A DNA stretch of 20,321 nucleotides, taken from the NCBI GenBank assembly GCA_048938895.1, contig JBHLLU010000064.1, positions 1 to 20,321 of the forward strand, written 5' to 3'. This document shows, piece after piece, positions 2,686 through 18,429 of the stretch. Origin of the DNA: Promethearchaeota archaeon (lineage in GTDB: Archaea > Asgardarchaeota > Lokiarchaeia > Sigyniarchaeales > SOKP01). A model generated the notes under the pieces. It ran no database searches and had not been told where the DNA came from. It saw nothing but the letters and a program-made list of their open reading frames with translations. A program made the translations under genes and the position numbers. Numbering within the stretch: position 1 is the stretch's first letter; each line of letters opens with the position of its first letter.

Positions 2686-2704
2686 ATAAAAAAAATGTAA
2701 TAAT

Positions 2705-2992
2705 TTAAATTTCTTCAAGGGTTTGTATACCTGGTCTTTCTGGAACGCAAAAGGGCGTAAATTCAGCCATATTTTTGCCTAAATTAGCCCCATGTGCCTT
2801 GAAAGCAGCCTCGTCAGCATATTTTTCATAAAAAATAATAATGTTCGGATTTTCCTTCACAACATGAGGTTGGTACACTAATGTACCAGGTTCTTGCTCT
2901 TTGATCTTTAGAACAATTTTCTTTAAAGCTGCTTTTGCTTCCTCCATTTTACCTTCTTGTATTTTTACAGTTGCAATAATTGATATTGTCAT
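2705..2992 (-). CDS. ABM-domain (antibiotic biosynthesis monooxygenase / putative quinol monooxygenase) protein
   Basis: 95 aa with pattern IIATVKIQEGK...EPGTLVY...IIFYEKYADEAAFKAH; GGTG motif just upstream of the ATG. Confidence 0.85.
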   Translation of the reverse strand: MTISIIATVKIQEGKMEEAKAALKKIVLKIKEQEPGTLVYQPHVVKENPNIIIFYEKYADEAAFKAHGANLGKNMAEFTPFCVPERPGIQTLEEI

Positions 2993-3089
2993 TATAACAC
3001 CATTTCTAATTTTTGATAAATTAGATTATTTATTAAAATGCTTTTACCTATAAAAAAAATTAGATTCATCATAAGATTTTAATTATTAA

Positions 3090-3264
3090 CTACACAAGAA
3101 ATTCCTGTGAATTTTTTGGAGATGGAATTCGCATCAGGTGTTCTAATGTCGGAGTAACATCAATTAATTTCACAGAAATATTCACCATCATAAAACTTGT
3201 GTATGAGATAGGGTATAGCTTGATCTATGCCGATTACTAAAAGTTTTTTAGGAACAGTTCCCAT
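3090..3264 (-). pseudogene. Remnant of an alkaline-phosphatase-superfamily (type I phosphodiesterase/NPP-like) gene with most of the interior deleted
   Basis: Not in the ORF track. ATG at 3264 reads MGTVPKKLLVIGIDQAIPYLIHKF, resembling the family's first strand and metal-binding Asp (LxIGxD), and stops at TGA 3162-3160. A shifted frame reads SVKLIDVTPTLEHLMRIPSPKNSQ to TAG at 3090, resembling the family's C-terminal 'lxDvxPTl..l.gip.P' motif. Confidence 0.65.
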
Positions 3265-3422
3265 ATATAATTCTCATCAATGATATAATTAATTAGTTAC
3301 TTTTAATACTGAATAATTCTAGGAGATAAATGCTTTAAATAAGACAATTATAAATTAAAAAAACTCATATTAGTAAATTATAATCAACCAAAAATGATCG
3401 GTATAGTAAAGGGGGATCAATA

Positions 3423-5285
3423 ATGATACCAAAGAAAATGGATATTTTTCTTAAAGAACGATTACCAGAAGCCACTCTAAAAACAAGACTCAAAAAGGAT
3501 AAAGGAAAATGTTTCTTGGAATTCAGTAAAGTAGATGAGCATCTACTATCTCGAATTGGAATCTATGCTGACAAATTAGGACCATATCTTGTTTCTTGTA
3601 TTTGGGATGAACAATCTCCTTTAGAAATTGGTGGATATCTAGTTGTGGATAATTTGAGTATGGGTAAACCGAGTATGGGTGGTATCAGAATGCTTCCTGA
3701 TATATTGCCTTCTGATATTCATAATTTAGCAAGGGGGATGACCCTAAAAAATGCAGCAGCTAATCTTCCATATGGAGGGGGGAAAGCAGGAATAGTGGCC
3801 GATCGAGAGCTCTCCCAAGATAATCATAATGAAGTAATCCGTAGTTTTGCACGTCTAATTAATAGATACAAAGATATTTATGTACCAGGACCAGATGTTG
3901 GTACAAATGATGCTGATATGAAAACAATAGCTATCGAAAATGGGCTGGATAGCGCAGTTTCTAAACCCGCTGATATGGGTGGAAATCGGATCGATGAACT
4001 TGGGGCCGCGGCGGGGGGAATCGTAATTGCACTTCAAACCTTATTAGAGATTCTACCAAGATTGAGAGTACTTACTCAATTTGCAAGCCTAGAAATTCCT
4101 GAAATAAAAGATTTGAAGGTTTTAATCCAAGGATTTGGTGCAGTCGGTGCTCATGCAGCACGTATTCTTAAGAAACGGATTCCAGAAGCAAGAGTAATTG
4201 GAATTAGTGATTTGGAGGGATATTTATACAATGAAGCAGGATTACCAGTAAGTGATCTTTTTAGTCTATGGCAAAAAAATCACCTTGTAACATATAATTA
4301 CTTCCAAAAAAACATCATCTCAGAAGGCTACAAACACCCAATTAAATTTTCGACCAATCGAAACAATTTACTTCTTGAAAGTGCTTTTTGTTTTATCCCT
4401 GCTGCCCCAATATTTAATTATTTAGGAGTTCGTCCTTCTGAATCTCCTACTACTACTGTTGATCGAATGGGAAAGTGGTCATTAATAGTAGAAGGTGCTA
4501 ATACATATAGCCCTGATCCTAACCGGAAAGCAGCCAGGACTAGGATGGAACAAATAGTGTATAGAGAAAGAGGTGTTATGATTGCTAACGATTATTTAGT
4601 CAATTCTGGTGGTGTTATTTTTGCTGCTCAAGAGCACATTATTAAAACTCCAGAACATCTTCAAGTACCCATAGAAATTCTAGGAGATCGTAACAAAGTA
4701 GATAAATGGTTAAATGATCATTCCAAAGAGTTTATAGAACTCTCAAAACAGAGATTAATAGCTGGAGAAGAATATAGGGAAGACGTAATACACCATAACA
4801 TGATTGAACATGTGGACCTTTTAGCAGCAAATCCAGATATGCTTCCTAGCACGGCAGCCGAAAGAATTAGTCTTCAACGTTTAACTGCAAAGGAAAGTGA
4901 ACGAACAGCAAAAGATATCATGATATCAATTCCAACAATTGATGTAAATAGTAATATTCAAGAAGCTGCTGAATTAATGATTAAAGAAAATAGTGGGATA
5001 ATAGCAGTACTTTCCGAAGAAAAACTTGTGGGGGTTATTACAGATTGGGATGTTACTGCTGCCGTAGCCTCAAATAGTTGTGATGCGATTATTGAAAGAA
5101 TAATGACAAAAGACGTAATTACAGCTGCCCCCGATTTTTCTATTGTAGACATAGTCCGAGAATTAGAACAGTTTCAGATTTCTGCAATGCCGGTAGTAGA
5201 AGATGGAAAAGTTTTAGGAATGGTTAATACTGATTTAATAGCTCAACGCTATTTCTTAGAATATCTACAAACTCGTCAATCATAA
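3423..5285 (+). CDS. Glu/Leu/Phe/Val dehydrogenase-family protein fused to a C-terminal CBS pair
   Basis: GGIR, MTLKNA, catalytic GGGKAG, VPGPDVGT, Rossmann IQGFGAVG, VEGAN and DYLVNSGGVI. Two CBS motifs follow from about 4905 (TAKDIM..LVGVITDWD; IMTKDVIT..MPVVEDGKVLGMV). GGGGGA upstream of the start. Confidence 0.9.
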   Translation: MIPKKMDIFLKERLPEATLKTRLKKDKGKCFLEFSKVDEHLLSRIGIYADKLGPYLVSCIWDEQSPLEIGGYLVVDNLSMGKPSMGGIRMLPDILPSDIHNLARGMTLKNAAANLPYGGGKAGIVADRELSQDNHNEVIRSFARLINRYKDIYVPGPDVGTNDADMKTIAIENGLDSAVSKPADMGGNRIDELGAAAGGIVIALQTLLEILPRLRVLTQFASLEIPEIKDLKVLIQGFGAVGAHAARILKKRIPEARVIGISDLEGYLYNEAGLPVSDLFSLWQKNHLVTYNYFQKNIISEGYKHPIKFSTNRNNLLLESAFCFIPAAPIFNYLGVRPSESPTTTVDRMGKWSLIVEGANTYSPDPNRKAARTRMEQIVYRERGVMIANDYLVNSGGVIFAAQEHIIKTPEHLQVPIEILGDRNKVDKWLNDHSKEFIELSKQRLIAGEEYREDVIHHNMIEHVDLLAANPDMLPSTAAERISLQRLTAKESERTAKDIMISIPTIDVNSNIQEAAELMIKENSGIIAVLSEEKLVGVITDWDVTAAVASNSCDAIIERIMTKDVITAAPDFSIVDIVRELEQFQISAMPVVEDGKVLGMVNTDLIAQRYFLEYLQTRQS

Positions 5286-6409
5286 TATTTTCTGATATTA
5301 TATAAGGTGTCTCTTTGTGCCGCACGTTTTCCTGCAGTTTTTATGATTGCTATTATCTCTTCCGGAGGAAGATATTCACCAAAATCTGCTCCTGCACTCT
5401 TAGATATGTTCTCTTCAATTAATGTTCCTCCAAAATCGTTTACGCCATAATTTAGAGAGACTTGAGCCAATTTGGGACCTAATTTTGGCCAAGAACATTG
5501 TAAATTATCAATATAATTATTTAGAAATATCCTTGAAACACAGAATAACTTTAAATCTGCCATTCCATAATTTGGGTTTAAAGGATGTGCTTCTAATCTC
5601 GATAACATCGGTTTTTCTTTTACAAAAGGTAAAGGTACTAATTCTGTGAATCCTCTCGTCTCTTTTTGAATTTCTCTTAGAATATTTAAATGCTTTATTC
5701 TATCATTATTCGTTTCAATATGTCCATACATGATTGTTGATGTTGTCGGGATTCTTAAATTATGCGCTGTGGTGATAATATTAATCCACTGTTGAGTAGA
5801 TACCTTGTTGGGGCATATAATTTTTCTGACATCATCAACTAAAATTTCTGCCGCAGTACCAGGGATTGAATCTAATCCTGCCTTTTTTAATTCTTTCAAG
5901 GTTGTCTCGATTGAATTACCGTATAATTTTGACATGAAAAAGATTTCTTGAGGTGAAAACGCATGAGTATGCAAATTTTTATCAACCTCTTTAACCATTT
6001 TAAGAATATCTAAATAAAAATCAAACCTGAGTTCAGGATTTATCCCTCCCTGAATACATACCTCTGTACAGTTTAAATTTTTTGCTTCAATAGTCCGCTC
6101 TTTAATTTCATCCAATGTAAATAAGAACGCATCTTCATGATTAGCTGGTAGACTAAATGAACAGAATTTACAACCTTGAAAGCATATATTTGTGAAGTTA
6201 ATATTGCGATTAATTACAAAGGTTACAATATTCTCTTTTTTATCTAGGCAAAGCTCATTTGCTGTATATTGTAGCACTAAAAATTCTTTTCCCTGAACAC
6301 CTAGTAGTTTTAAAGCCTCATCAGGGGTGATCTCAATATTATTTAATGCCTTCTTTAAAATTGCCTTTGTTTCTCTTTCTATGTGATTAAAAATATCAGT
6401 ATCCATCAT
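5276..6409 (-). CDS. cofH: FO synthase subunit CofH (radical SAM)
   Basis: VTFVINRNINFTNICFQGCKFC (CxxxCxxC), EVCIQGG, HAFSPQEI, GLDSIPGTAAEIL, TTSTIMYGHIE, GVNDFGGTLIEENISKSAGA; adjacent to cofG. Confidence 0.93.
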   Translation of the reverse strand: MMDTDIFNHIERETKAILKKALNNIEITPDEALKLLGVQGKEFLVLQYTANELCLDKKENIVTFVINRNINFTNICFQGCKFCSFSLPANHEDAFLFTLDEIKERTIEAKNLNCTEVCIQGGINPELRFDFYLDILKMVKEVDKNLHTHAFSPQEIFFMSKLYGNSIETTLKELKKAGLDSIPGTAAEILVDDVRKIICPNKVSTQQWINIITTAHNLRIPTTSTIMYGHIETNNDRIKHLNILREIQKETRGFTELVPLPFVKEKPMLSRLEAHPLNPNYGMADLKLFCVSRIFLNNYIDNLQCSWPKLGPKLAQVSLNYGVNDFGGTLIEENISKSAGADFGEYLPPEEIIAIIKTAGKRAAQRDTLYNIRKYYD

Positions 6410-7505
6410 TATTTATATTATCTATGACTTTTTTAATACTTTCTGAGCAGAAACCACTTCTCGATATAAATTTTTCATAAATTGGAAGTCTTTCCTTGAG
6501 GAGATAACCATTAGAGCTGCAAATTTTGCTTAACTCATCGATGTAAGGCCATGGGTTCTCTGGATTTACATAATCCAAAGTAAATGGTGAAATTCCCCCA
6601 AAATCATCAATCCCCATTTCAATAAATTCCTTTTCATATCCGGATATTAAATTTGGAGGTACCTGAATAGCAATATTATTTTCAAATATTATTCTCGCAA
6701 TTCCAACGATTCTTAGAATCTCATCAAAACTGATTTTTTTTTTTGGTTGGTAGGGAATTCCGGGTTTATTTACAAAATTCTGAATAATTATCTCTTGAAT
6801 ATGACCATAAGTATCATGAATATTTTTAATTAAAAATAAATCTTTTATTCTATCGTTTATAGATTCTCCTATTCCTAAAAGGAGACCTGTAGTAAAAGGG
6901 ATCTTCAACTTTCCTGCATTTTGAATATGTTCTATACGCTTTTCAGGGATTTTTCCAGGCGATTGCTCATGTACACCTCCCTTCTCATATAATTTCATAC
7001 TTGTGCTCTCGAGCATAAGCCCCATACTGGCATTGTAGCTCTTTAATTGTTTCAGTTCATTAAAAGTAAGGATTCCAATATTTGTGTGAGGTAATAAGTT
7101 CAACTTCAACAAATTACTAGAAATTTCACTCACAAATTTAATGAAATTAGTATACTCTCTCTTTTTTAATTCGTTTCTAACATTTTCAAAGACCTCAACT
7201 TTTTCCCCTGACATAATTAATGTTTCTTTACAGTTATAATCAATACCCTTCTGAATTATTTCTTCCATCTTTTCTTTTTCAAGTAAAACGACATTTTGCT
7301 CCATCCCTAACTTGGGAATTCTATGGTTATAGAAACAATATCCGCAGAAATTTTGACAATAATTTGAGAGAGATAATGTAAAATTTTTAGAATACGTGAT
7401 TAAATAACGTTCTTCTTTTGGTAATTCAGATTTAATCTCTCTGACATTCTCCCTTAGTTTTCTAAGAGGACTTTTTTTGAAATAATCTATATTTTTTTGA
7501 ATCAT
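6396..7505 (-). CDS. cofG: FO synthase subunit CofG (radical SAM)
   Basis: ITYSKNFTLSLSNYCQNFCGYC, LLPHTNIG, NASMGLMLE, IPFTTGLLLGIGE, GHIQEIIIQNF, IQVPPNL, DDFGGISPFTLDYVNPENPWP. Confidence 0.93.
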   Translation of the reverse strand: MIQKNIDYFKKSPLRKLRENVREIKSELPKEERYLITYSKNFTLSLSNYCQNFCGYCFYNHRIPKLGMEQNVVLLEKEKMEEIIQKGIDYNCKETLIMSGEKVEVFENVRNELKKREYTNFIKFVSEISSNLLKLNLLPHTNIGILTFNELKQLKSYNASMGLMLESTSMKLYEKGGVHEQSPGKIPEKRIEHIQNAGKLKIPFTTGLLLGIGESINDRIKDLFLIKNIHDTYGHIQEIIIQNFVNKPGIPYQPKKKISFDEILRIVGIARIIFENNIAIQVPPNLISGYEKEFIEMGIDDFGGISPFTLDYVNPENPWPYIDELSKICSSNGYLLKERLPIYEKFISRSGFCSESIKKVIDNINNDGY

Positions 7506-8173
7506 AACATATTCCGTTTATATTTTAGCATAACATAATTATTTCGGCAGCTTAAATTAATTAGATCATATTTAGTGGCCTCACTCATAGTATCAAAACC
7601 GAAACCCTCAACCAAACTGATTGCTTCTTTACCACCAACAATCCAAGGCGCAACTGTTAACCTAATTTCATCTACTAAATCCTCTTTAATGAAAGTCCAG
7701 TTTAAATTCCCCCCTCCTTCAAGTATAATTGATTTTATTCCAGATTTTTTTAGGAGTGGCATAAGATTTCGCAGATCGACACGTTCTCCTTTTCCTGATT
7801 GAATTATTTTTATATTATGGCTCTCAAATTTCTTTATTTTACTAACTGGAACATTTTCTGTTGTACAGATGATTGTAGGGTAAATTTCTGGTTGGTATGA
7901 TATAACATTTGATTCTATTGGGATTGATAACTTACTATCAACAACAATTCGAAAATATCCATTATGTTCAAAAAATTTTATGTGTAATTTTGGATTATCA
8001 TTTAGAACTGTATCCTTTCCAACCATAATAGCATCTACTTGGCTGCGTAGTTTATGAACTTCCCTCCAATCTTCTTCATCCGAAAGCTCAGAATCACCGG
8101 ATTTTGAAGCAATTTTCCCATCAATTGTCATAGCCGCACTTAATATTACATAAGGTTTTTTATATTCTTTCAA
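7502..8173 (-). CDS. arfC: 2,5-diamino-6-ribosylamino-4(3H)-pyrimidinone 5'-phosphate reductase (RibD-C/Rib7/ArfC type, no deaminase domain)
   Basis: PYVILSAAMTIDGKIA, VHKLRSQVDAIMVG, DNPKL, RIVVDS, ILEGGGNLN, LVDEIRLTVAP; ATGA overlap with cofG. Confidence 0.88.
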   Translation of the reverse strand: MKEYKKPYVILSAAMTIDGKIASKSGDSELSDEEDWREVHKLRSQVDAIMVGKDTVLNDNPKLHIKFFEHNGYFRIVVDSKLSIPIESNVISYQPEIYPTIICTTENVPVSKIKKFESHNIKIIQSGKGERVDLRNLMPLLKKSGIKSIILEGGGNLNWTFIKEDLVDEIRLTVAPWIVGGKEAISLVEGFGFDTMSEATKYDLINLSCRNNYVMLKYKRNML

Positions 8174-9329
8174 ACACTACTTCTCCTTTTATATAAGTCT
8201 TTTTTATATTCTCTGATTTTAATCTTTGTACAATAACATCATAAATATTGGAATTGTTTAAGTTTTTAGTATAAAAATTTGGGTCATTCAGGTCAACAAG
8301 AAAGAAATCTGCCATTTTTCCCTCAGAGATTGATCCCATTTTATTTTCTAGCCTAAAGTTTTTAGCTGCATTAATGGTAACCATTCTTAAGAGCGCTTTT
8401 GAGGTTAATTGTATTGTTTTGTCATAACTTCCTAATACTCTAAAAATTCGGTATATATAGCGCATTTCTTCAAAAAGATCCGAATTATTGGTCATTAGAT
8501 TATCCGTTCCTAAGGATACAGGAATTCCAAGTTTTAGTATTTCCGTTATAGGTGGAAATCCCACACCAAAATATCCATTTGAACGAGGGCATAAAACTAA
8601 TGCCTTCTCCTCCTTTTGTATTTGTACTAAATCGCTTTTAGTTAATTTTGTTCCGTGAATGATAATATCGACCAAATTATCTTTGAAGAGACTCTCTAAT
8701 ATTTTAGAATCGCGAATGTTCTCAGCACAATGACATGCTATCATCTTTTCAAAATCTAATTTTGATTTTGCAATATAATTTTTATTATTCATTGAAATCT
8801 GATCATAACTTGCTAGCCCCACACCATCCGCTAGCTCAAATATTAAACCTATTTCACTCTCATCCATAAACCTCCCATATATTCGACAATTAATTGGTGT
8901 TTTTTCTAAAATTTTCCTTAGAAGGCTTACACCTTCAATTCCTCCTTCTCTAAAATCTATAAAACAGGTAATCCCACTCGAAAACATTTCTAAAATTGCT
9001 TTCTCTATGCCAAATCTAATGATTTCCTGTGAGGTTTGTCTTAACAACTGATGTTTTAGACCAAATGGTGGAGCAACAATTTCATTTAATTCTTTATTAA
9101 TTCCAATCTCTTTAGCAAAACTATCACCAATATGAACATGAGAATTTATCAAACCAGGAATTAATAACGTAGATTGGTCAATTTTTAATGGTTGAAGGTT
9201 TTCTTCAGGATTTTCATATGAAATCTTATTAATTTTACCTTCCTTATCAATTTCTATAAATACATTCTTCGCTAAATCTAGATCATCCCCAATTAATGCA
9301 TAGGGACTATGGACTATTGTTTCATGCAT
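8160..9329 (-). CDS. Metal-dependent amidohydrolase (TIM-barrel, deaminase-like)
   Basis: PGLINSHVHIGD (HxH), DFREGG, CHCAE, IIHGT, LCPRSN, LGTDN, TINAA, GSISEGKMADF; first gene of an overlapping operon with arfC-cofG-cofH. Confidence 0.85.
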   Translation of the reverse strand: MHETIVHSPYALIGDDLDLAKNVFIEIDKEGKINKISYENPEENLQPLKIDQSTLLIPGLINSHVHIGDSFAKEIGINKELNEIVAPPFGLKHQLLRQTSQEIIRFGIEKAILEMFSSGITCFIDFREGGIEGVSLLRKILEKTPINCRIYGRFMDESEIGLIFELADGVGLASYDQISMNNKNYIAKSKLDFEKMIACHCAENIRDSKILESLFKDNLVDIIIHGTKLTKSDLVQIQKEEKALVLCPRSNGYFGVGFPPITEILKLGIPVSLGTDNLMTNNSDLFEEMRYIYRIFRVLGSYDKTIQLTSKALLRMVTINAAKNFRLENKMGSISEGKMADFFLVDLNDPNFYTKNLNNSNIYDVIVQRLKSENIKKTYIKGEVVFERI

Positions 9330-9527
9330 TATTATGTTCTCTGAAACATAATGATTGAACGAGTTATTTTAATATATTACTATAACATTAAGTTATTTCA
9401 AATTATCTAATACTCAGTAAAAATGATTTATTTTAATTTATATTAACTATTATAACCGATTCATCTTTTTCTAATTTAGAGAAAAAAATAAGTTATATAC
9501 AGGTGAATTAGAATTCACAAATTTAAA

Positions 9528-10472
9528 ATGGATCTTCAAGATTCTGGGTCAGAATTTGATATTGCAATAGATAAAGTTGGGATTGTCGGACTAGAGAAAA
9601 AAGTTGAAATTGTACAAGAGAATAAAAAATACTCATTTTATCCTAAGATTTCTGCACTAATAAACCTTCCTGCTCAGCAACGTGGCATTCATATGTCGAG
9701 GACTTCGGAAACTATAGAAGAAGTGATAAACGAGGTAATCTTTAAACCCACTCCAACAATCGAGTTAGTTGGAGATAGGATAATTCGAAAATTATTAGAA
9801 AAGCATCCATATACTTCAAAAGCGGAAGTGAAATTAGAAGGAAAGATTGTAGTTCAAGTCAGAGAAAATAATACAAGAAATATCCAAAAATCTTACGATA
9901 TTAGCTCTTTTGTTAAAGCTAAAAGAAAAGGAATTGGTGAAATTGATTACATATATTTTATTGGGGCTAGTGCTGTAGGAATGACGGTATGTCCCTGTGC
10001 CAAGGAGATGTCACAAGAATATGCTGCTGAAGTCATCAAAACACGGAAAGATATTAATGTTTCAGAAGAGGACCTTAAAAAATTAATCAATATTCTTCCA
10101 TTTTCATCACATAATCAGAGATCAATTGGAACGATAATCCTGCAGATAAAAGATCTATCTAACCATAAAATTGATGTTTTAGATATAATCGATGTGATAG
10201 AAGAATCTATGAGCGGTAAAATCCAATCCGTATTAAAGAGACCAGAGGAAGCTGAATTGGTAAGAACTGCTCACCTAAAACCACTATTCTCTGAAGATGT
10301 TATAAGAGAAATGGCAAAGAATTTCATTCTAAGAGATTTTCCAAATCTTGAAAATAATTTTGAAATTAAATTTAAAATTGAATCTTTAGAAAGCATACAT
10401 TTACATAATGTATATGCTGAATTAAAAACTACAATAGGGGAATTAAAAAACAAATTACAAGCAAAAAATTAA
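9528..10472 (+). CDS. mptA: GTP cyclohydrolase MptA (FolE2/GCYH-IB family)
   Basis: DLQD..IDKVGI, QRGIHMSR, GMTVCPCA, SHNQRS, LKRPEE, FSEDVIR, ESIHLHNVYA; GGTGA upstream. Confidence 0.88.
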   Translation: MDLQDSGSEFDIAIDKVGIVGLEKKVEIVQENKKYSFYPKISALINLPAQQRGIHMSRTSETIEEVINEVIFKPTPTIELVGDRIIRKLLEKHPYTSKAEVKLEGKIVVQVRENNTRNIQKSYDISSFVKAKRKGIGEIDYIYFIGASAVGMTVCPCAKEMSQEYAAEVIKTRKDINVSEEDLKKLINILPFSSHNQRSIGTIILQIKDLSNHKIDVLDIIDVIEESMSGKIQSVLKRPEEAELVRTAHLKPLFSEDVIREMAKNFILRDFPNLENNFEIKFKIESLESIHLHNVYAELKTTIGELKNKLQAKN

Positions 10473-10490: not shown

Positions 10491-11696
10491 TTATTTCCTA
10501 TTATTTACAAAGTGCTTTATTACAATTATATAACTTTTAACAGGTAAAATTTTTGGATTTTTTTTATAACTAGCTGGAATTGGAGCATTGCACCTAGAAC
10601 ACAAGTTTGAACTTCTCAACCAATCCCTAAATTCATCTGCATGAGCAGGATATCTACAATTTGGGCATAAAATTATTCCCCTTCCTCTATCTTCGGGAAG
10701 TTTAGGCAATTTAAAACAAAAAATGCATTTAAAATCCTCTTTTGATAAGCGTGCTGCATTAGGTTTATATATATTAAAATTAGTTATTTTTCTCATACTC
10801 TTTTGGCTACGTACTTGACTTCCTGTTGATCCTGTCCTTGTAGTTTTAGTTGATGTTTTAACACTTGTAGTTGCAGATCTTCTCTGTGAGGTCGGTGTTG
10901 ATCTTGATGAATGACTTACAGTTCTTGATCTATTAGTCACAGTTCTAATTGAAGGTGTTGGAGTTGCTCTTATAGTTGTCCGAGTGCTTTCTCTATATCT
11001 TCTTGGCGTTGTATTAGATCTAGGTGTTGTTAATTGGTTTAATCTATTTGTACGTTGAGTGATATAATCTCTAGTTAGCTGGGGCAATCGGGATCTTGTT
11101 CCAAATAATCCCGGAATAATTATTATTAAGATTGTAACTATAAGCAATATCAAAAGATTAAGATCTACAAAGAGATGAGCAGGTAGGAAATAAGGATCAT
11201 AAAAGTCGACAAGAGAATAAAAACTTAACCAATATATTACAATGAAAAGCACAATTGAAATACTCAAGATATAACCAAATTTACGCGCATCGATAGATTT
11301 AGTACCAAAATAAATCACATTATATTTCTTAAAGCAACGATAAAGAGAGATTGAACCATATAAAATATAGGGAGACCCGAATAGAATACTCCACCAACTT
11401 AAATATAAATCGGTACTTTCTAAAAGATTTTCACCTAACAAACCTGTAAAATTCCCCCAAATTGAATAAAAGATTCCAATAAAAAGAGGAGCTATAGTAA
11501 AAAATGCGGTATTATGAGGTGAGTTATATTCGCGGTGCTGTTTAATGTTTTTTAAAACTTTAAAAGAAAATATTAACCAGATCCCAATCAATAACCAGCT
11601 AATAAAGACATTAACGGAATTTAGGATTGCCCCATGAATTATTCCTATAATTGTAAACACAAGGAGTAGTAGGACTATTGATTTAGTTTTTACCAC
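10491..11696 (-). CDS. Multi-pass membrane protein with C-terminal RING-variant zinc finger (putative E3 ligase)
   Basis: About 6 hydrophobic segments in residues ~7-200, then a ~100 aa Thr/Ser/Arg-rich low-complexity linker. It ends in C-x2-C-x16-C-x2-C-x4-H-x2-E-x3-W-x6-C-x2-C (nt 10590-10727). Last gene of the Ubl-E1-E2-JAMM run. Confidence 0.72.
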   Translation of the reverse strand: MVKTKSIVLLLLVFTIIGIIHGAILNSVNVFISWLLIGIWLIFSFKVLKNIKQHREYNSPHNTAFFTIAPLFIGIFYSIWGNFTGLLGENLLESTDLYLSWWSILFGSPYILYGSISLYRCFKKYNVIYFGTKSIDARKFGYILSISIVLFIVIYWLSFYSLVDFYDPYFLPAHLFVDLNLLILLIVTILIIIIPGLFGTRSRLPQLTRDYITQRTNRLNQLTTPRSNTTPRRYRESTRTTIRATPTPSIRTVTNRSRTVSHSSRSTPTSQRRSATTSVKTSTKTTRTGSTGSQVRSQKSMRKITNFNIYKPNAARLSKEDFKCIFCFKLPKLPEDRGRGIILCPNCRYPAHADEFRDWLRSSNLCSRCNAPIPASYKKNPKILPVKSYIIVIKHFVNNRK

Positions 11697-11725: not shown

Positions 11726-12559
11726 TTAATCTTCATCATATTCTAGATATACCGGCTTTCCCTGAATAATGGGATTCATAAAATTTAGTATTTCTGGAAG
11801 CATGCGAATGTCTAGTGACCCTTTAATACCATAAACTAAGGGATACCAACTCTTAGTGGTTAAATCAGCACGATAAATTTCAAAGCCTGCTGAAGTTCCG
11901 TTAATAAGGTATGGATCTATAACAAGTGCAACAGCTTTATTCCAAAGTTTTTGGTATCTTGCTTGAGTGCCAATATCTTCGTTAGACATAAAACATCCAT
12001 AAGAAGGATGACTATGTGCCCAACCACAAATAAATAACTTTTGTTTTTTAATATCTTGAAAGGCTCTAGCATAATTTCTATAATCTTTTATTTCAGCATA
12101 CACTGCTGTTCCATGACCCATAGGATAGTAATCCTCAATATGTAAAATGCCATATCTATCAATTACTTTTCCTGCAAGTAGTCCTATTACTTCTACCCAA
12201 TTTCGTTTGGGAATTCTAGAATTCGCATACTTAAGGGCATGACTTGCTACTTTTAGAATTGCTTTTACTGAAATGTATACTTCCTTTTCTATTTTTTCAT
12301 CATTATTACTTATTTCCTCTACGTTTATTGTGTCTGATCTAGCCTGAATGGTATTTGAATGCTTAATTGTTTGCTTTTCGGGAGTTTTTTTAGAAATCAT
12401 CGAGCTAATTTCATTAACTAATTCTTTTTCTTCAAATTTTAATTCTTCATAAATTTCTTCTAATAGTTCCTTTTTAATTATGTCTTTAATTTTCAATTTT
12501 ATCGTCTCTTTAATAGAGTCTATATGTTTATTTTCTTCTCCCATTCTGTTTTTCACCAC
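11726..12559 (-). CDS. JAMM/MPN+ metallo-isopeptidase (Rpn11/AMSH-like) with N-terminal helical extension; ATG at 12544 is a likely alternative start
   Basis: ISVKAILKVASHA, catalytic EVIGLL, GWAHSHPSYGCFMSNED (HxH-x7-S-x2-D), ALVIDP. Confidence 0.92.
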   Translation of the reverse strand: MVKNRMGEENKHIDSIKETIKLKIKDIIKKELLEEIYEELKFEEKELVNEISSMISKKTPEKQTIKHSNTIQARSDTINVEEISNNDEKIEKEVYISVKAILKVASHALKYANSRIPKRNWVEVIGLLAGKVIDRYGILHIEDYYPMGHGTAVYAEIKDYRNYARAFQDIKKQKLFICGWAHSHPSYGCFMSNEDIGTQARYQKLWNKAVALVIDPYLINGTSAGFEIYRADLTTKSWYPLVYGIKGSLDIRMLPEILNFMNPIIQGKPVYLEYDED

Positions 12560-13080
12560 TTTTTAGTAGCATACTTTTTAACAAGAGTTTTTACTTTTTT
12601 TTCAAAAAGTTTCTGATTTTTCATCATTTCTATTGCTGCCTTTTTATTGAAAACATCAGTTGGATTTACATACTTACCTCGTGTGTTTAACATGGCGATT
12701 ATCGCCTGAACGACAGTAACAGCTGATTTTGATGGACTCCAGCCACCCTTTTTTCCAACTAGTGATGGATCTACTAATGCCAAACATATATTTCTCTGTC
12801 CTTTATATTCACTCGGCTTTGCCCAAAAATTCGGATGCCAAATCGGTGTGTGTAATCTAACAAATGGTGGCTGCTTAGGATACTGAGTAGGAAATCTCAT
12901 TTCTAACTTAAAGAGACCACCTGCATAAGCCGTACCCTTGGGACCTTTAATAGTCATTGCTAAATGATCTATACTCTTTCTTTGAGGATTAAATGGTTTT
13001 AACTGAATTATAGTTCCTTGTTTATATAATTTTTTTAATCCAGCAAAATCTTGGGAGATCCGACTACTTCTTATACTCAT
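12553..13080 (-). CDS. Ubiquitin-conjugating enzyme E2
   Basis: IKGPKGTAYAGGLFKLEMRFPTQYPKQPP, TPIWHPN, catalytic Cys in NICL, WSP, NPTDVFNKKAA. Confidence 0.93.
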   Translation of the reverse strand: MSIRSSRISQDFAGLKKLYKQGTIIQLKPFNPQRKSIDHLAMTIKGPKGTAYAGGLFKLEMRFPTQYPKQPPFVRLHTPIWHPNFWAKPSEYKGQRNICLALVDPSLVGKKGGWSPSKSAVTVVQAIIAMLNTRGKYVNPTDVFNKKAAIEMMKNQKLFEKKVKTLVKKYATKKW

Positions 13081-13180: not shown

Positions 13181-14416
13181 TTATTTGAATTTAAGAGTTA
13201 CAAAAATTTCTCCTTCCTTAAATCCTGCAATTGTTAAAAATTCATAATCTCTTAAACCGTTTTGAATTGGATTCTGTTCTAAATCTATCATTTTGACATC
13301 GTTAAAATCCAGTAATGTTATAACAGGTTCTAGATCAGGATCTAGTTTAAAACCATGATTTTCTAAGGTTTTAATTACATTACTACATGGAGAACTTTTA
13401 TTCAACTTCACTACGAATCTTCGAACATCTTTACCACATTGAGAACATTCTGGGTTCCTTTTCTTTTCAATATGATAAAACATCATGGTTATTCCATTAA
13501 AAATAACATATGTTTTGATAGGTTGACCTAAACCCTTATGACCTTTATTCCAATGAAGAATTTTTACAACTTCATGCGATTGTAATGCAGAAATAATTGC
13601 ATTGATGGTTATAATTCCTGGATCATGCCTATCAATAATTTTAACAATATCATCTTCAGTATACTCAGGGAGGAAATTGTGTTTGTTTACCAGTTCATTA
13701 GCAATTTTTTGAATATACTTAATATCATCAATGTTCTTTGGATTGGGGTCCCTGTCAAAGTTTTCCTTAAAGGCCATATCTCCCTTGAAAACACAGTGAA
13801 TTCTTTTTCTCGGTACGCCAACGACTGTACATGCTGCCATCTCATCACTTGCTCCCACTGGGAGAGGATTACATTCATAACATGCATTTTTGTAAGGAAA
13901 AACGGTATAAACATGACCATGGTAACCTGATACTCCTCCATCTACTAAGGGTTTTCTAAATCTAATACACTGAGCATTTAAATTTAAACGAGCGTTCATG
14001 GAGTCGAGACCCCCCACGACAACATCAGCTGCCTTATATAATTCTGGATCCAATCTTTCTAAGGAACTATAATACCCTTTGATAACTATATTCGGATTAA
14101 TTTCACTTAATTTTTTTGCAGCAACATTTGCTTTAGGTTCTCCTAACTTAGCACCTGCAAATAAAATTTGACGATTTAAATTTGAATGTTCTATAATATC
14201 TAGATCTACCAAATCTATATGACCCACACCTAACATTGCTATGTTCTTCGCAATTTCGCATCCTAATCCACCAACTCCCACTATTAAAACTCGAGAATTT
14301 TTTACTAGTTTCTGTGACCATCCCTCAAGTCTAAATTGCCTATCATATAAATTTCGTTCTTCTGATGTTAGATCTTTACTAAAAAAATCTGAACTCTTTT
14401 TCATTATTTTCACCAA
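13181..14416 (-). CDS. Ubiquitin-like activating enzyme E1 (ThiF/MoeB fold with Uba2/Uba3-like catalytic Cys segment); ATG at 14404 likely start
   Basis: YDRQ, VGVGGLGCE, DLDIIEHSNLNRQILF, Zn pairs CYEC and CSQC, catalytic segment ACTVVGVPRKRIHC, and a ~80 aa C-terminal extension in the position of a ubiquitin-fold domain. Confidence 0.92.
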   Translation of the reverse strand: MVKIMKKSSDFFSKDLTSEERNLYDRQFRLEGWSQKLVKNSRVLIVGVGGLGCEIAKNIAMLGVGHIDLVDLDIIEHSNLNRQILFAGAKLGEPKANVAAKKLSEINPNIVIKGYYSSLERLDPELYKAADVVVGGLDSMNARLNLNAQCIRFRKPLVDGGVSGYHGHVYTVFPYKNACYECNPLPVGASDEMAACTVVGVPRKRIHCVFKGDMAFKENFDRDPNPKNIDDIKYIQKIANELVNKHNFLPEYTEDDIVKIIDRHDPGIITINAIISALQSHEVVKILHWNKGHKGLGQPIKTYVIFNGITMMFYHIEKKRNPECSQCGKDVRRFVVKLNKSSPCSNVIKTLENHGFKLDPDLEPVITLLDFNDVKMIDLEQNPIQNGLRDYEFLTIAGFKEGEIFVTLKFK

Positions 14417-14493: not shown

Positions 14494-14826
14494 CTAACCC
14501 GCAGTACTTGCAGGAATCAAAAGAATATCATCACCATCATTGACATTATAGTCTCTCAAAGAACTATTTTCATCCATTGTAACTCCGCCAGAAGATAAAT
14601 GAAAATCATTTGGATCAAGCCCATAAAGATTACCTAAAGTTCGCTTAATATCTCTTACTTGATTACTGTCATTAACTGTTAATTTTTCTTTTTTTTCTCC
14701 AGGACCAATAGTTGACATGAAATATAAAGTAAGTTTTTTTCCTCCAGAAGGAGTCTTAGAGGCAGGAGTTTTAGATCTTAAAGGTTCCTCCTCACCTAAA
14801 TTTTCATCAAATTCATCAAAACTCAT
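14494..14826 (-). CDS. Ubiquitin-like modifier 1 (beta-grasp fold, acidic N-terminal tail, C-terminal ..LIPASTAG)
   Basis: Ubl pattern LTV...V.DIK...FHLSSGGVTMDENSSLRDYNVNDGDDILLIP; ends in Gly immediately before TAG; directly upstream of E1. Confidence 0.9.
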   Translation of the reverse strand: MSFDEFDENLGEEEPLRSKTPASKTPSGGKKLTLYFMSTIGPGEKKEKLTVNDSNQVRDIKRTLGNLYGLDPNDFHLSSGGVTMDENSSLRDYNVNDGDDILLIPASTAG

Positions 14827-15076: not shown

Positions 15077-15748
15077 ATGAATTCTTTGGATAATGCAGAA
15101 TCTATTGTTCTTGAATTAGTAGAAGAGTATTTAGTGAAAAAAACCTTTTTTTCTGTAAGAGAAATTATATCGTTTATTAGTAATAGAGTGAGGTATAATC
15201 CTAATATAAATGAGAATAGAATTGAATTAATCTTAAAGGATTTAATTAAACAAAGAATTATTCTTCCTGGTACAAGATTAATGAAAAACAATATTATTGA
15301 ACATCCAAAAAGGAATGAGATCTTTAATTACATCAAGAAGAATCCCTCAAATATTAATGAAATAATGAAAACCCTGCATATCGGTAGTAATCAAGCTTTA
15401 TGGCATTTATCATGTTTAGAAAAATTCCAATTCGTAAGATCAAAACAAATTAACAATCATAGAGTTTTCTTTAAATTTGAATCAAATCCTAAATATGACG
15501 AGTTATATTATTATTTGAAAAAAGAAATTCTTCAAAAAATAATTCAGTTTATGGATCAAGAGAATAGAGCATTAAAAATTACAGAAATAGCAACTGGTTT
15601 AAAAAAAAATCATAATACAATCAAAAAATACTTGTCTATCTTAACGGATCTGAAATTAATAAATATTGAAAAGGATATTAAGAGAAAACTCTTCAAACTT
15701 AACAAAAAGAATTACATAAAGATAAAAAAATTAATTAATGGTGGTTAA
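15077..15748 (+). CDS. Multi-domain winged helix-turn-helix transcription regulator (ArsR-like tandem wHTH)
   Basis: KRNEIFNYIKKNPSNINEIMKTLHIGSNQALWHLSCLEKFQFV and LKITEIATGLKKNHNTIKKYLSILTDLKLI are two wHTH units; there may be a third at the N-terminus. Confidence 0.8.
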   Translation: MNSLDNAESIVLELVEEYLVKKTFFSVREIISFISNRVRYNPNINENRIELILKDLIKQRIILPGTRLMKNNIIEHPKRNEIFNYIKKNPSNINEIMKTLHIGSNQALWHLSCLEKFQFVRSKQINNHRVFFKFESNPKYDELYYYLKKEILQKIIQFMDQENRALKITEIATGLKKNHNTIKKYLSILTDLKLINIEKDIKRKLFKLNKKNYIKIKKLINGG

Positions 15749-15833: not shown

Positions 15834-16625
15834 ATGAAAAAAAAAAATAGAATTTTTAGTATTTTTGCTCTTTTTGCTGTCTGTATTTTTATTTATGTTC
15901 TTTTTTTCTTATTTCGTATCAAAAATTATTCCTTATTTCTCATTCTATCGATTGGTAGTGTTGCTGTTCTATCTACTAGTACTGTGTATACAATTATTCA
16001 ATCTAAAGGTAGTTGGGAAGATAAAATAAAAAGAAAAAAAATACCTGAACCTAAATCAATTAAAATGAAACCTGTTGATATCATTGAATACTATATTGAT
16101 GCTATACCTTTAATTAAAGAGTATGTTGAATCAGATGAAAGTTATAAGGATATGGAAATAATCGATAAGTATATTTTTTCAGTTTTTAGTAAGGAAGAAT
16201 TAATTAAAATAAATCTCCTTGATTTATCTCCAATTGATAAAATTAACTTCATCCAAGAAATGCTTTATTTTGATTCAAATGAAAGAAAGACCTTGTTTGA
16301 AAATATGTTGAGAAATAGAGATAAAGTTGATGAAAAAGTTACTTATACACCGATTCTAAGTACTTATGATACTGAAGACCAGATTCGTGTTTTTATAAGA
16401 TCATTAGTTGAACCCGGTGATAAAACAAAAATATTAATAATTAACACTGATGAATTTATTGGTATATTAAAAGAAAAAATAGGCATAATATTTGATTATA
16501 CTCCAGAAAGTTTTTTACTCTCTTCAGGAGGAATATTGTTAGATGATCAATCACAAATAAAAGACTTCAATATAGTAGATGATGATGAGATAGCTTTAAT
16601 TCCCTCAAGAAAAAATAGAGGATAA
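15834..16625 (+). CDS. Membrane-anchored protein (2 N-terminal TM segments) with C-terminal ubiquitin-like domain ending in Gly
   Basis: Hydrophobic residues ~8-27 and ~33-56. Residues 183-263 (nt 16380-16622) align by eye with the neighbouring Ubls (FLLSSGGILLDDQSQIKDFNIVDDDEIALIP vs FHLSSGGVTMDENSSLRDYNVNDGDDILLIP). It ends ..RKNRG-stop. Confidence 0.82.
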   Translation: MKKKNRIFSIFALFAVCIFIYVLFFLFRIKNYSLFLILSIGSVAVLSTSTVYTIIQSKGSWEDKIKRKKIPEPKSIKMKPVDIIEYYIDAIPLIKEYVESDESYKDMEIIDKYIFSVFSKEELIKINLLDLSPIDKINFIQEMLYFDSNERKTLFENMLRNRDKVDEKVTYTPILSTYDTEDQIRVFIRSLVEPGDKTKILIINTDEFIGILKEKIGIIFDYTPESFLLSSGGILLDDQSQIKDFNIVDDDEIALIPSRKNRG

Positions 16626-16663: not shown

Positions 16664-17071
16664 TTACCCCGCTGTACTTGCTGGAATTAACAAAATGTCG
16701 TCACCATCATTTATATTGTAATCTTTTAAAAATGAACCCTCATCCATAGTAACTCCACCAGAAGATAAATGAAAATCAGCTGGATCTAATCCAAATAAGT
16801 TTGCTACCGTTTCTTTAATATCTCCAACATTATTGCCCGTATTTACATTTAATTTCTGCTTTTTCTCACCTGGACCAATAGTAGACATGAAATATACGGA
16901 AATCTTTTTCCCTTCAGTAGTAACTCTTAGTGCAGGAGTTTTGGATTCAACTACTTCTTCAGGAGTCTTAGTAGAAGGTTCTTCTAAATCTTCTTCCAAA
17001 TCTTCGTCTAACTCTTCATCTAACTCTTCATCCAAATCCAAATCCTCATCAAAATCATTGTCAAATCCCAT
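16664..17071 (-). CDS. Ubiquitin-like modifier 2 (paralogue of Ubl1, longer acidic tail); start reassigned to ATG 17071
   Basis: The core is near-identical to Ubl1 (YFMSTIGPGEKK, DFHLSSGGVTMDE, NDGDDILLIPASTAG). MGFD matches Ubl1 MSFD, and AGGAGG at 17085-17090 lies upstream. 135 aa. Confidence 0.9.
   Translation of the reverse strand: MGFDNDFDEDLDLDEELDEELDEDLEEDLEEPSTKTPEEVVESKTPALRVTTEGKKISVYFMSTIGPGEKKQKLNVNTGNNVGDIKETVANLFGLDPADFHLSSGGVTMDEGSFLKDYNINDGDDILLIPASTAG
16979..17035 (-). repeat. 12-bp tandem repeat (about 5 copies) encoding L-[DE]-E-[DE] in the Ubl2 tail
   Basis: TTGGATGAAGAG / TTAGATGAAGAG / TTAGACGAAGAT / TTGGAAGAAGAT / TTAGAAGAA on the minus strand. Confidence 0.75.
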
Positions 17072-17307
17072 TAAAATTATATAACCTCCTTTGTTATGAA
17101 TACATATACATAAAAGAAATTTAAATATATAAATAGAATCGAGATATAAAAGAATAAATCTCAAAATAAAATTAATGACCTCATTTAACTGCATTATTAA
17201 AAATGCAAAATATTTAAAATTCTTTTCAGGACTTATTTTTAGTAAAATGCAAACACTTTAGAGTCGGGGTTAATATGAAATTATTAGCATAATTAGATAT
17301 TAAATGA

Positions 17308-18429
17308 ATGTATATGAATGAAGAACCTATTCCAAAACATAAGATTAGAGAAAAAACACCAGAAGAAGAGATGGATCTTCCACTCGATAAAAGACTATTA
17401 AAAAAAATTAAAAAAGAGAGAATAGCTTTAGATAAAGAAAAGAGTGAGTGGGAAAAAGTAGTTAACCAAATTGAAAATTATAATGATAATATCAAAAGTC
17501 TTGAAATAAAAAGGAAGAACCTAGAAACTGAGGTCAGAAACCTCACCGAAAAAAGGGATTTATTACGAAATGACTTAAAACAAGCGAGAAATGACATTGA
17601 AAAACAAAAAGACGATTTAGCTTTGAAAGAAAACCAGTTAAGAGAGAGATATAGGAGAAAAAATGAAGAACTAAGCGAAAAGAAAGCTCAACTTGACAAA
17701 TTTCAAGAGAAATTAGATAATTTACGGGAGGAAATAAGTAGAGACAAAAATGATTTAGAAAATGAAAAGCAAAATTCAGAGAACCGCTTAAAAGAGATCA
17801 AAACAAAACTTCCTGGGATGGAAAGAAGAGAGAGTGCTTTAGAAAGAACTATTAATGATTTAGAAGATAAGTTAATGGATTTAAGAGATGAAGCAAAAAA
17901 TCTAACTAAAGAACGCGATAGCCTAAAAAGGGAAATAATTGATGAAAGAAATAGGATAGCTGACGAAAAAAGAAGGTTAAAAGAAGAACGAGAAAAAACT
18001 CGATATAGGAAAAAAGATTTAGATTTAAAAGCACGTGAAATTGAAAAAAAAAAAGAAGATTTAAAAAAATATAGAGATAAAATAGATAAGGACTCAAATG
18101 ATCTAGAAAAAAGAACCCGACAACAAGACACAAGATTTAAAGAATTAGAAAGGAAAATTCCTCGAGCTGAAGACAGATACAACTCCTTAATGCATAAAAT
18201 CCCAAATTTAGAAGATAAACTCAAAAAGTTAAATGAGGATTATAAAAAAATCGCAAAGGAAAAGATTTCACTAGAGAATGAAAAAAATACCATCAGGAGA
18301 GAACGAGAAAAACTTGAGAAAGATAAACAACGATTCTTAAGAGAAAAACGAGATTTTGAAAAAGAAATAAGGAAAATTAAAACTATCCCTAAACATAAAA
18401 TCAGATCAAAAACTCCTTCAAACTACTAA
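17308..18429 (+). CDS. Long coiled-coil protein with internal ~116-120 aa repeat and matching terminal motifs
   Basis: K/E/R/L-rich heptad-like sequence with no ATPase head. IPKHKIREKTP at the N-terminus and IPKHKIRSKTP at the C-terminus. Confidence 0.8.
   Translation: MYMNEEPIPKHKIREKTPEEEMDLPLDKRLLKKIKKERIALDKEKSEWEKVVNQIENYNDNIKSLEIKRKNLETEVRNLTEKRDLLRNDLKQARNDIEKQKDDLALKENQLRERYRRKNEELSEKKAQLDKFQEKLDNLREEISRDKNDLENEKQNSENRLKEIKTKLPGMERRESALERTINDLEDKLMDLRDEAKNLTKERDSLKREIIDERNRIADEKRRLKEEREKTRYRKKDLDLKAREIEKKKEDLKKYRDKIDKDSNDLEKRTRQQDTRFKELERKIPRAEDRYNSLMHKIPNLEDKLKKLNEDYKKIAKEKISLENEKNTIRREREKLEKDKQRFLREKRDFEKEIRKIKTIPKHKIRSKTPSNY

Follow-up and report, generated by a model that had tools for sequence, protein, structure and literature searches.

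A probable membrane-bound RING-type ubiquitin ligase encoded in a ubiquitin-like operon of an Asgard archaeon

The contig JBHLLU010000064.1 of a Promethearchaeota archaeon (assembly GCA_048938895.1; Asgardarchaeota, Lokiarchaeia), which was analysed over its whole length of 20,321 nucleotides and is hereafter called the window, is AT-rich, the genome having about 30% G+C. On its minus strand, between positions 10491 and 11696, it carries an open reading frame (ORF) whose product joins six predicted transmembrane (TM) helices to a C-terminal RING-type zinc domain; we refer to this protein, and to the family to which it belongs, as TM-RING. This protein probably acts as a membrane-bound ubiquitin ligase, in a prokaryote closely related to the eukaryotes. 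More precisely, we assign a probability of about 0.65 to the interpretation that TM-RING is the membrane-embedded RING-type ligase (E3) of the cascade encoded by its own operon, with the RING carried on a flexible, Lys-poor tether and with a TM module serving partner or substrate selection and probably oligomerisation. What was observed, and what this interpretation is built on, is the architecture of the protein, its topology signal, its RING fold as modelled, the homology of its zinc domain to RING proteins of other archaeal operons, and a conserved synteny.

The TM-RING ORF stands last in an operon of co-directional genes that also encodes a ubiquitin-like modifier, an activating enzyme (E1), a conjugating enzyme (E2) and a JAMM metalloprotease. 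The features of the protein and of the operon are the following:

10491..11696, minus strand: whole TM-RING ORF, 401 amino acids (aa), GTG start, stop codon at 10491-10493; six-TM domain, disordered linker and RING-type domain
11106..11696, minus strand: TM module, residues 1-197, delimited by a Kyte-Doolittle scan, AlphaFold2 helices, charge bias and the residues in common with a TM-only paralogue
11622-11693, 11529-11615, 11457-11507, 11328-11396, 11214-11288 and 11106-11162, minus strand: TM helices 1 to 6, respectively
10782..11105, minus strand: linker, predicted to be cytoplasmic, residues 198-305, delimited by composition and by the predicted local distance difference test (pLDDT)
10494..10781, minus strand: C-terminal RING-type domain with flanking helices, residues 306-401, including a conserved pre-RING segment with the invariant P312
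10590..10727, minus strand: metal-ligand core, C324 to C369, pattern C4-H-E-C2, with W359
11726..12559, minus strand: JAB/MPN (JAMM) metalloprotease, directly upstream of the TM-RING gene (PF01398, E 2.2e-13)
12553..13080, minus strand: E2 (UQ_con; PF00179, E 5.4e-26)
13181..14416, minus strand: E1-like activating enzyme of the ThiF family (PF00899, E 7.3e-60)
14494..14826, minus strand: ubiquitin-like modifier ending in ...STAG (PF00240, 28.4 bits against a cut-off of 25.4)

The four operon neighbours (ubiquitin-family protein, E1, E2 and JAMM) all lie above the respective Pfam cut-offs, and the intergenic distances, going upstream from TM-RING, are 29, -7 (an overlap), 100 and 77 bp. The start of the TM-RING ORF is supported by its homologues, which share the same N-terminus (MVKTK/MAKIK), and the alignment of 20 orthologues of the operon E2 revealed that the HPN motif and the catalytic Cys99 are invariant. 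The same arrangement was checked in the loci of 20 relatives, picked by hand to span seven families, related genomes among them not being independent samples: the JAMM gene is followed by the TM-RING gene in all 20 loci, the E2 gene precedes the JAMM gene in 19 (the twentieth being cut by the contig end), and genes for a ubiquitin-like protein and for an E1 are located upstream or within a few kb. The TM-RING feature is real and conserved, and it is functionally linked to the ubiquitin-like/E1/E2/JAMM operon.

As regards its distribution, the family includes at least 357 proteins at E <= 1e-3, a count obtained by scoring the best 8000 candidates only, which fall into 119 clusters at 50% identity. 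The matches listed are mostly 350-450 aa long, and every name given by the source to the best 120 of them is "hypothetical protein"; the best relatives are labelled Promethearchaeota (Loki-type), Thor-, Hod-, Hermod- and Odinarchaeota. In a sample of 201 genomes drawn from across the phylum, 123 had a match at E <= 1e-5, in many cases to RING-only proteins, and about 67, belonging to the families that we numbered f1, f2, f5, f10, f14, f16 and f22, had a best match at E <= 1e-30. The strong matches of this last group that were checked extend over the TM part as well as the zinc domain.

Conservation is highest in the zinc domain, whose mean column identity is 0.52 against 0.36 for the TM part. 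Its pattern is C324-x2-C327-x16-C344-x2-C347-x4-H352-x2-E355-x3-W359-x6-C366-x2-C369, and the nine motif positions are invariant in 52 out of 52 family members, with identities down to about 20%, which places the pattern far beyond chance. Seven of the positions are Cys/His ligands, and the sixth ligand position is occupied by Glu355. Concerning the residues expected to contact the E2, I325 is kept in 46, F326 in 38 and W359 in all of the 52 members; by motif position, and not by alignment, I325/F326 and W359 correspond to I30 and W58 in the small RING finger protein (srfp) of Caldiarchaeum. Moreover, R368, which lies within the last Cys pair (ligands 7-8), is present in 50/52 sequences.

When the family profile was compared with the PDB, it retrieved the RING of human RNF24 (E 0.0088), and in this alignment H352 corresponds to ligand 5, E355 to ligand 6 and W359 to the helix Trp contacting the E2. 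At the Pfam level, 16 of the 63 aligned family members matched zf-RING_2 and 16 matched Prok-RING_1 at E <= 0.01; in 20 full-length members scanned singly, each of these two families was found five times, always below its cut-off.

The C-terminal domain, folded alone, reached a pLDDT of 93.1. The rows listed in a Foldseek search of this model against the PDB are almost exclusively RING/U-box domains (best E 6e-3, probability 1.00), and a second, Foldseek-independent search over 48,161 chains gave RING/U-box-type domains in 50 of the 50 rows listed, with Z from 7.6 to 4.8 and 55-87 residues aligned. No PHD finger, UBZ finger or zinc ribbon was found among the rows listed in either search, although absence from these rows does not by itself exclude a family. 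As modelled, the C-terminal zinc domain has the RING/U-box fold.

The closest relatives of this domain were found in the archaea. A hidden Markov model of the domain retrieved, with E values of about 1e-12, RING proteins of 60-92 aa whose genes lie next to those for an E2 and an E1 in 10/10 loci, these loci having been picked by hand from other Asgard families. The comparison of the zinc domain with a group of seven such proteins by hhalign gave a probability of 98.4% (E 5e-15, 55 columns), and the four small RING proteins that were scanned are all over a Pfam RING cut-off, with 32.1 and 35.8 bits for Prok-RING_1 and 33.7 and 31.4 bits for zf-RING_2. On the basis of these profile comparisons, the zinc domain belongs by descent with the archaeal operon RING proteins of the srfp type. 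The Caldiarchaeum srfp has been demonstrated by biochemistry to be an E3, with an activity that depends on I30, W58 and R69 (PMC5654768), and activity is also reported for a Helarchaeial RING E3 (bioRxiv 10.1101/2023.07.25.550441).

TM-RING and the srfps thus share a homologous zinc domain with identical spacing (C-x2-C...CPxC-x4-H-x2-X-x3-W...C-x2-C), and both are encoded in a cluster with E2 and E1 genes. The differences concern the remaining part of the protein, ligand 6 and the operon: srfps are soluble and 60-92 aa long, whereas TM-RING has 401 aa, with a six-TM module and a tether of 108 aa; ligand 6 is a His in srfps and a Glu in the TM-RING family; and TM-RING is located in a ubiquitin-like/E1/E2/JAMM operon having another gene order. 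The same genome also harbors a soluble paralogue of 380 aa (locus L002, positions 1144-2286, minus strand), with a CPxCxxPAH..W finger, a Cys at ligand 6 and a C-terminal zinc ribbon, which scores 27 bits with Prok-RING_1 in hmmscan and 31 bits in the genome search. As a separate observation, other Asgard lineages have membrane-anchored RING proteins that are built differently (L070:7847-8671, L071:7045-7857 and L068:3485-3964, all on the minus strand); among them there are proteins with hydrophobic segments ahead of a Prok-RING_1 domain (35.8 and 38.6 bits) and another one with a C-terminal hydrophobic tail.

A number of data weigh against the assignment of TM-RING as the E3 of its operon. 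First, ligand 6 is a Glu, neither a Cys nor a His, in all 52 members, and the first zinc site may therefore be altered or lost. The linchpin position 370 is occupied by N, D, S, G, E or A in the 52 members, and never by K or R. The protein itself has no Pfam match at E <= 0.01 and none in NCBIfam, and its best scores with curated RING families are below the cut-offs (zf-RING_16, 12.8 bits against 27.4; Prok-RING_1, 11.7 against 29.1); the weak Pfam matches that remain are zf_UBZ (E 0.02), zf-RING_16 (E 0.099), Prok-RING_1 (E 0.26) and DZR. The structural Z values (<= 7.7) are middling by the calibration of the search itself, so that their weight lies in all the rows being of one kind, and the fold was called from structure matches. 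Finally, the genome contains 11 Prok-RING_1-like matches (E <= 0.01) and about four E2-like domains; with several RING-like and E2-like proteins available, the pairing of TM-RING with the operon E2 is drawn from gene order alone. The prediction of a complex between the E2 and the RING domain (score 0.25, against a mark of 0.32) weighs neither way.

Some of these features would suit a degenerate RING, and hence a non-catalytic membrane adaptor that docks or sequesters the E2, the modifier or the JAMM protease without stimulating transfer: the invariant Glu in place of ligand 6, the linchpin position devoid of basic residues and the scores under all the Pfam RING cut-offs can be read in this way. 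We regard such an adaptor as unlikely, since the E2-contact residues I325/F326 and W359 are conserved, the zinc domain has a higher identity than the TM part, and the gene lies where an E3 of the cascade would be expected in the operon.

The membrane part of the protein was delimited in the same way by a Kyte-Doolittle scan and by AlphaFold2, both of which place six TM helices at residues 2-25, 28-56, 64-80, 101-123, 137-161 and 179-197. The AlphaFold2 model, built on 52 diverse homologues, has a mean pLDDT of 84.3, with values above 89 throughout the TM part, and shows a short beta-hairpin at 127-136, in the fourth loop. The mean numbers of K+R and D+E residues in the 52 members are 1.46 and 0.13 at the N-terminus, 2.83 and 1.40 in loop 2, 5.63 and 0.46 in loop 4, and 6.40 and 1.98 after TM6, whereas in loops 1, 3 and 5 D+E outweigh K+R. 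This corresponds to a positive-inside pattern and predicts an N-in/C-in topology, which, in turn, would place the linker and the zinc domain in the cytoplasm. The loops predicted to be cytoplasmic are also those in which the TM module is conserved, at R55/N58/P60 and in the beta-hairpin with K124-Y125..I128.

The TM module had no match in Pfam or in NCBIfam, and a search of the ESM Atlas with residues 1-205 gave no usable match. With the TM region (residues 1-200), the Foldseek-independent structure search listed generic or designed helical bundles only (Z <= 7.2). Foldseek with the whole model listed RING rows only, and no TM row of Hrd1, Derlin/rhomboid, Doa10 or Pex proteins was among the whole-model rows listed, the TM part not having been folded and searched alone. 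Two candidates were discarded. An internal 3+3 repeat obtained an hhalign probability of 1.9%. PFF1_TM (PF22251, the TM domain of a vacuolar membrane protease) was matched by 6 of the 63 members at E <= 0.01, with a best E of 2.2e-6; in the two members inspected (P0178 and P0192), which score 21.3 and 19.2 bits (cut-off 32.3), the aligned stretch spans TM5-TM6 and the low-complexity linker, and because it crosses this linker the matches are probably compositional.

The TM module also exists without the RING. In 11 of the 13 loci belonging to distant (Heimdall-labelled) families, a TM-only paralogue of 195-213 aa is encoded on the same strand, directly downstream of the TM-RING gene (L036-L038, L041, L042, L044, L045 and L049-L052; for example L037:7974-8576, minus strand, beside the TM-RING gene at L037:8563-9732); of the other two loci, one has the paralogue nearby on the opposite strand and one lacks it. 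No TM-only paralogue was found in the seven close-family loci or in the window. A profile search with the paralogue retrieved 97 proteins, none of them with a Pfam domain, from organisms labelled Heimdall-, Prometh-, Thor-, Hermod- and Lokiarchaeota; nearly all of them are named "hypothetical protein" by the source, with one exception reading "ABC-type multidrug transport system permease subunit". As a unit, the TM module is autonomous, and the residues that the paralogue retains (N58, P70, P109, R120, Y125 and I128) lie mostly on the cytoplasmic loops, which suggests that these residues might form a docking surface.

The autonomy and conservation of the module, with stand-alone paralogues keeping these same six residues, also raise the case that it might be the functional core of the protein, for instance as a channel, transporter or membrane enzyme, with the RING mainly controlling the abundance of the protein by self-modification or coupling it to the cascade. 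This seems to us distinctly improbable: no similarity to transporter or enzyme families was detected in Pfam, NCBIfam or the ESM Atlas, the structural matches being generic bundles; the conserved residues cluster on the cytoplasmic loops and not inside the bilayer; and the scarcity of Lys in the linker argues against a self-modification designed to take place there.

The linker opens with a conserved juxtamembrane helix (residues 209-223, approximately), after which it becomes a disordered, Arg/Ser/Thr-rich and Lys-poor tether, with AlphaFold2 pLDDT values below 50 at 231-289 and 294-300. Its 108 residues include 27 T, 17 S, 20 R, 4 K and 2 D+E. The ratio K/(K+R) is 0.17 in the linker, compared with 0.70 in the 18 other ORFs of this AT-rich window, and in 52/52 members the share of Lys is lower in the linker than in the remaining protein. 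The Lys-poor linker may be read as an avoidance of acceptor lysines beside the ligase domain; the alternative reading is a binding function like that of RS (Arg/Ser) domains. The linker composition resembling RS domains, the weak zf_UBZ match (which covers only 13 residues, limited to the Cys-knuckle, and was discarded), that to DZR, and a C-x2-C...C-x2-C-x4-H-x2-X...C-x2-C spacing that we take to be the consensus of C4HC3 fingers could also be combined into a PHD/UBZ-type reader or binder, or a nucleic-acid-binding finger, in place of a RING recruiting the E2, and this appears highly improbable in view of the homology to operon-linked RINGs that pass the zf-RING_2 or Prok-RING_1 cut-offs and of the absence of PHD and UBZ fingers from the 50 rows and the Foldseek rows listed.

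An earlier, sequence-only reading of the window had described this protein as having about six TM segments, a long basic Thr/Ser/Arg-rich linker and a C-terminal RING-like domain with a conserved Trp, in an operon with E1, E2 and JAMM. The helices placed by the Kyte-Doolittle scan and by AlphaFold2, the T, S and R counts of the linker, the invariance of W359 in a domain that structure searches relate to RING/U-box folds and not to PHD fingers or ribbons, and the Pfam matches above the cut-offs together with the synteny in relatives' loci all agree with that description. The cytoplasmic location of the zinc domain, for which a topology check had been proposed, is predicted by the positive-inside pattern of the 52 members.

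That reading had compared the protein with the eukaryotic ligases Hrd1, gp78 and MARCH, as an analogous or ancestral form. Of the two terms, "analogous" is defensible on the architecture, and for "ancestral" no evidence was found. Homology to those ligases did not emerge, the TM module having no Pfam or NCBIfam match and only generic bundles among its structural matches, and the nearest relatives of the zinc domain turned out to be the archaeal small RING finger E3s, which had not been considered. TM-RING resembles Hrd1/gp78, MARCH/Doa10 and Pex2/10/12 in architecture only, the resemblance being called architectural because homology of the TM parts was not found.

With Hrd1 and gp78 it shares a multi-pass membrane domain followed by a cytosolic C-terminal RING, and the RING of HRD1 (6f98) appears among the weak Foldseek rows of the whole model (E 0.66). 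The TM domains are without detectable similarity (in Pfam and in the structure-search rows listed), the ligands are C4-H-E-C2 instead of the C3H2C3 of RING-H2 domains, six helices are found in place of the eight TM helices of Hrd1, and the TM-RING operon includes neither luminal partners nor a Derlin-like gene. MARCH and Doa10 are membrane-anchored ligases as well, and their C4HC3-like spacing, presumably with a Trp four residues past ligand 6, resembles that of the TM-RING finger; their RING-CH, however, is N-terminal to the TM segments, while the finger is C-terminal in TM-RING, ligand 6 is here a Glu and not a Cys, and no similarity was found between the TM parts. Pex2, Pex10 and Pex12 are multi-TM proteins with a C-terminal RING that assemble via their TM parts; the Pex12 RING (7t9x, Z 5.0) and the complex (7t92, Z 4.9) are among the 50 structure-search rows listed, and the TM-only paralogue of the Heimdall-labelled loci hints at a comparable hetero-oligomer. 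For the TM part of TM-RING no match was found, and its oligomerisation is a prediction.

Regarding the other genes of the window, the operon modifier (14494-14826, minus strand) has the C-terminus ...LLIPASTAG, the tail of ubiquitin being ...RGG. Twenty-seven ubiquitin-like ORFs were identified in the 20 related loci, with the STAG motif in 26 and SRAG in one; 17 of them end exactly at the Gly and 10 have 1-7 extra residues, which would have to be processed, the JAMM protease being a plausible agent. The modifier occurs a second time at 16664-17194 (minus strand): the C-terminal 70-odd residues of this copy, including ...STAG, are nearly identical to the operon modifier, and ahead of them lie a long, acidic extension at the N-terminus and also a hydrophobic leader. 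The ORF at 15834-16625 (plus strand), of 263 aa, has two hydrophobic helices in its N-terminal part and, at the C-terminus, a ubiquitin-family domain ending in ...SRKNRG (PF00240, 24.9 bits, slightly below the cut-off of 25.4), and its product may be a membrane-anchored ubiquitin-like protein; proteins with ubiquitin-like domains flank the operon also in three of the relatives' loci (L033, L034 and L048).

Divergent from the operon, positions 15077-15748 (plus strand) encode a winged-helix (ArsR/HTH_5-like) protein that could be its regulator. The product of 17308-18429 (plus strand) has 373 aa, is rich in Lys, Glu and Arg, carries near-identical short motifs (PKHKIR.KTP) at both ends and, judging from its sequence and from weak Pfam hits, is probably a long coiled coil. 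On the other side of TM-RING, the gene immediately downstream is folE2, coding for a GTP cyclohydrolase and convergent with TM-RING, and the region 1309-10472 is a cofactor-biosynthesis neighbourhood that includes:

1309-2685: pterin-binding protein
5276-6409: radical-SAM gene, CofH-like
6396-7505: second radical-SAM gene
7502-8173: RibD_C
8160-9329: amidohydrolase
9528-10472: folE2

The sequencing runs listed in a search for expression are 11 DNA metagenome runs (sediment, marsh and mangrove) from seven studies, with no RNA run among them.

The interpretation of TM-RING as the E3 of its operon leads to a mechanism in which the parts that we infer are the binding of the E2, the activity as a ligase, the substrates, the oligomerisation and the cause of the scarcity of Lys. 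The six TM helices would anchor the protein in the cytoplasmic membrane so that its two termini face the cytoplasm, and a flexible tether of about 100 residues, Arg-rich and so poor in Lys that it would be kept from becoming a target, would carry the RING. The RING would bring the charged E2 of the operon to the inner membrane face, and there the modifier would be passed on to membrane or membrane-proximal proteins; the JAMM protease would reverse the modification or process the modifier. The TM module, probably oligomeric, would probably select substrates or partners within the membrane.

A full-text search of the literature found no description of a TM-RING protein in an Asgard ubiquitin operon; figures and supplements were outside that search, and an earlier depiction is thus possible. 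What appears to be new is that a putative archaeal RING E3, encoded within an operon, is joined to a six-helix membrane module not described before and has a Glu at a metal-ligand position. A bolder scenario, which we put forward tentatively and whose chances we consider rather low, would see in the dedicated E3 of the Loki-type and Heimdall-labelled Asgard operon an integral membrane machine. Its undescribed six-TM module, homo-oligomeric here and paired with the TM-only paralogue in the Heimdall-labelled lineages, would recognise or extract membrane proteins; ubiquitin-type tagging in the archaeal relatives of eukaryotes would have served the quality control or the sorting of membrane proteins, foreshadowing endoplasmic reticulum-associated degradation (ERAD) or multivesicular body (MVB) sorting, at a time when endomembranes did not yet exist; and the first zinc site of the RING would have a carboxylate ligand.

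In eukaryotes, ERAD, endocytic and MVB sorting and the recycling of peroxisomal receptors depend on membrane-embedded RING ligases, for which we know of no established prokaryotic origin; to our knowledge, the archaeal ubiquitin cascades described so far make use of small soluble RING proteins. The TM-RING family differs from these in that a six-helix membrane module and a RING are combined in one conserved, operon-encoded protein. It therefore represents a concrete, clonable candidate for addressing whether the ubiquitylation of membrane proteins predates the eukaryotes, and it makes available, at the same time, a TM fold that awaits characterisation, along with a natural variant of the RING in which a Glu occupies one of the metal-ligand positions.

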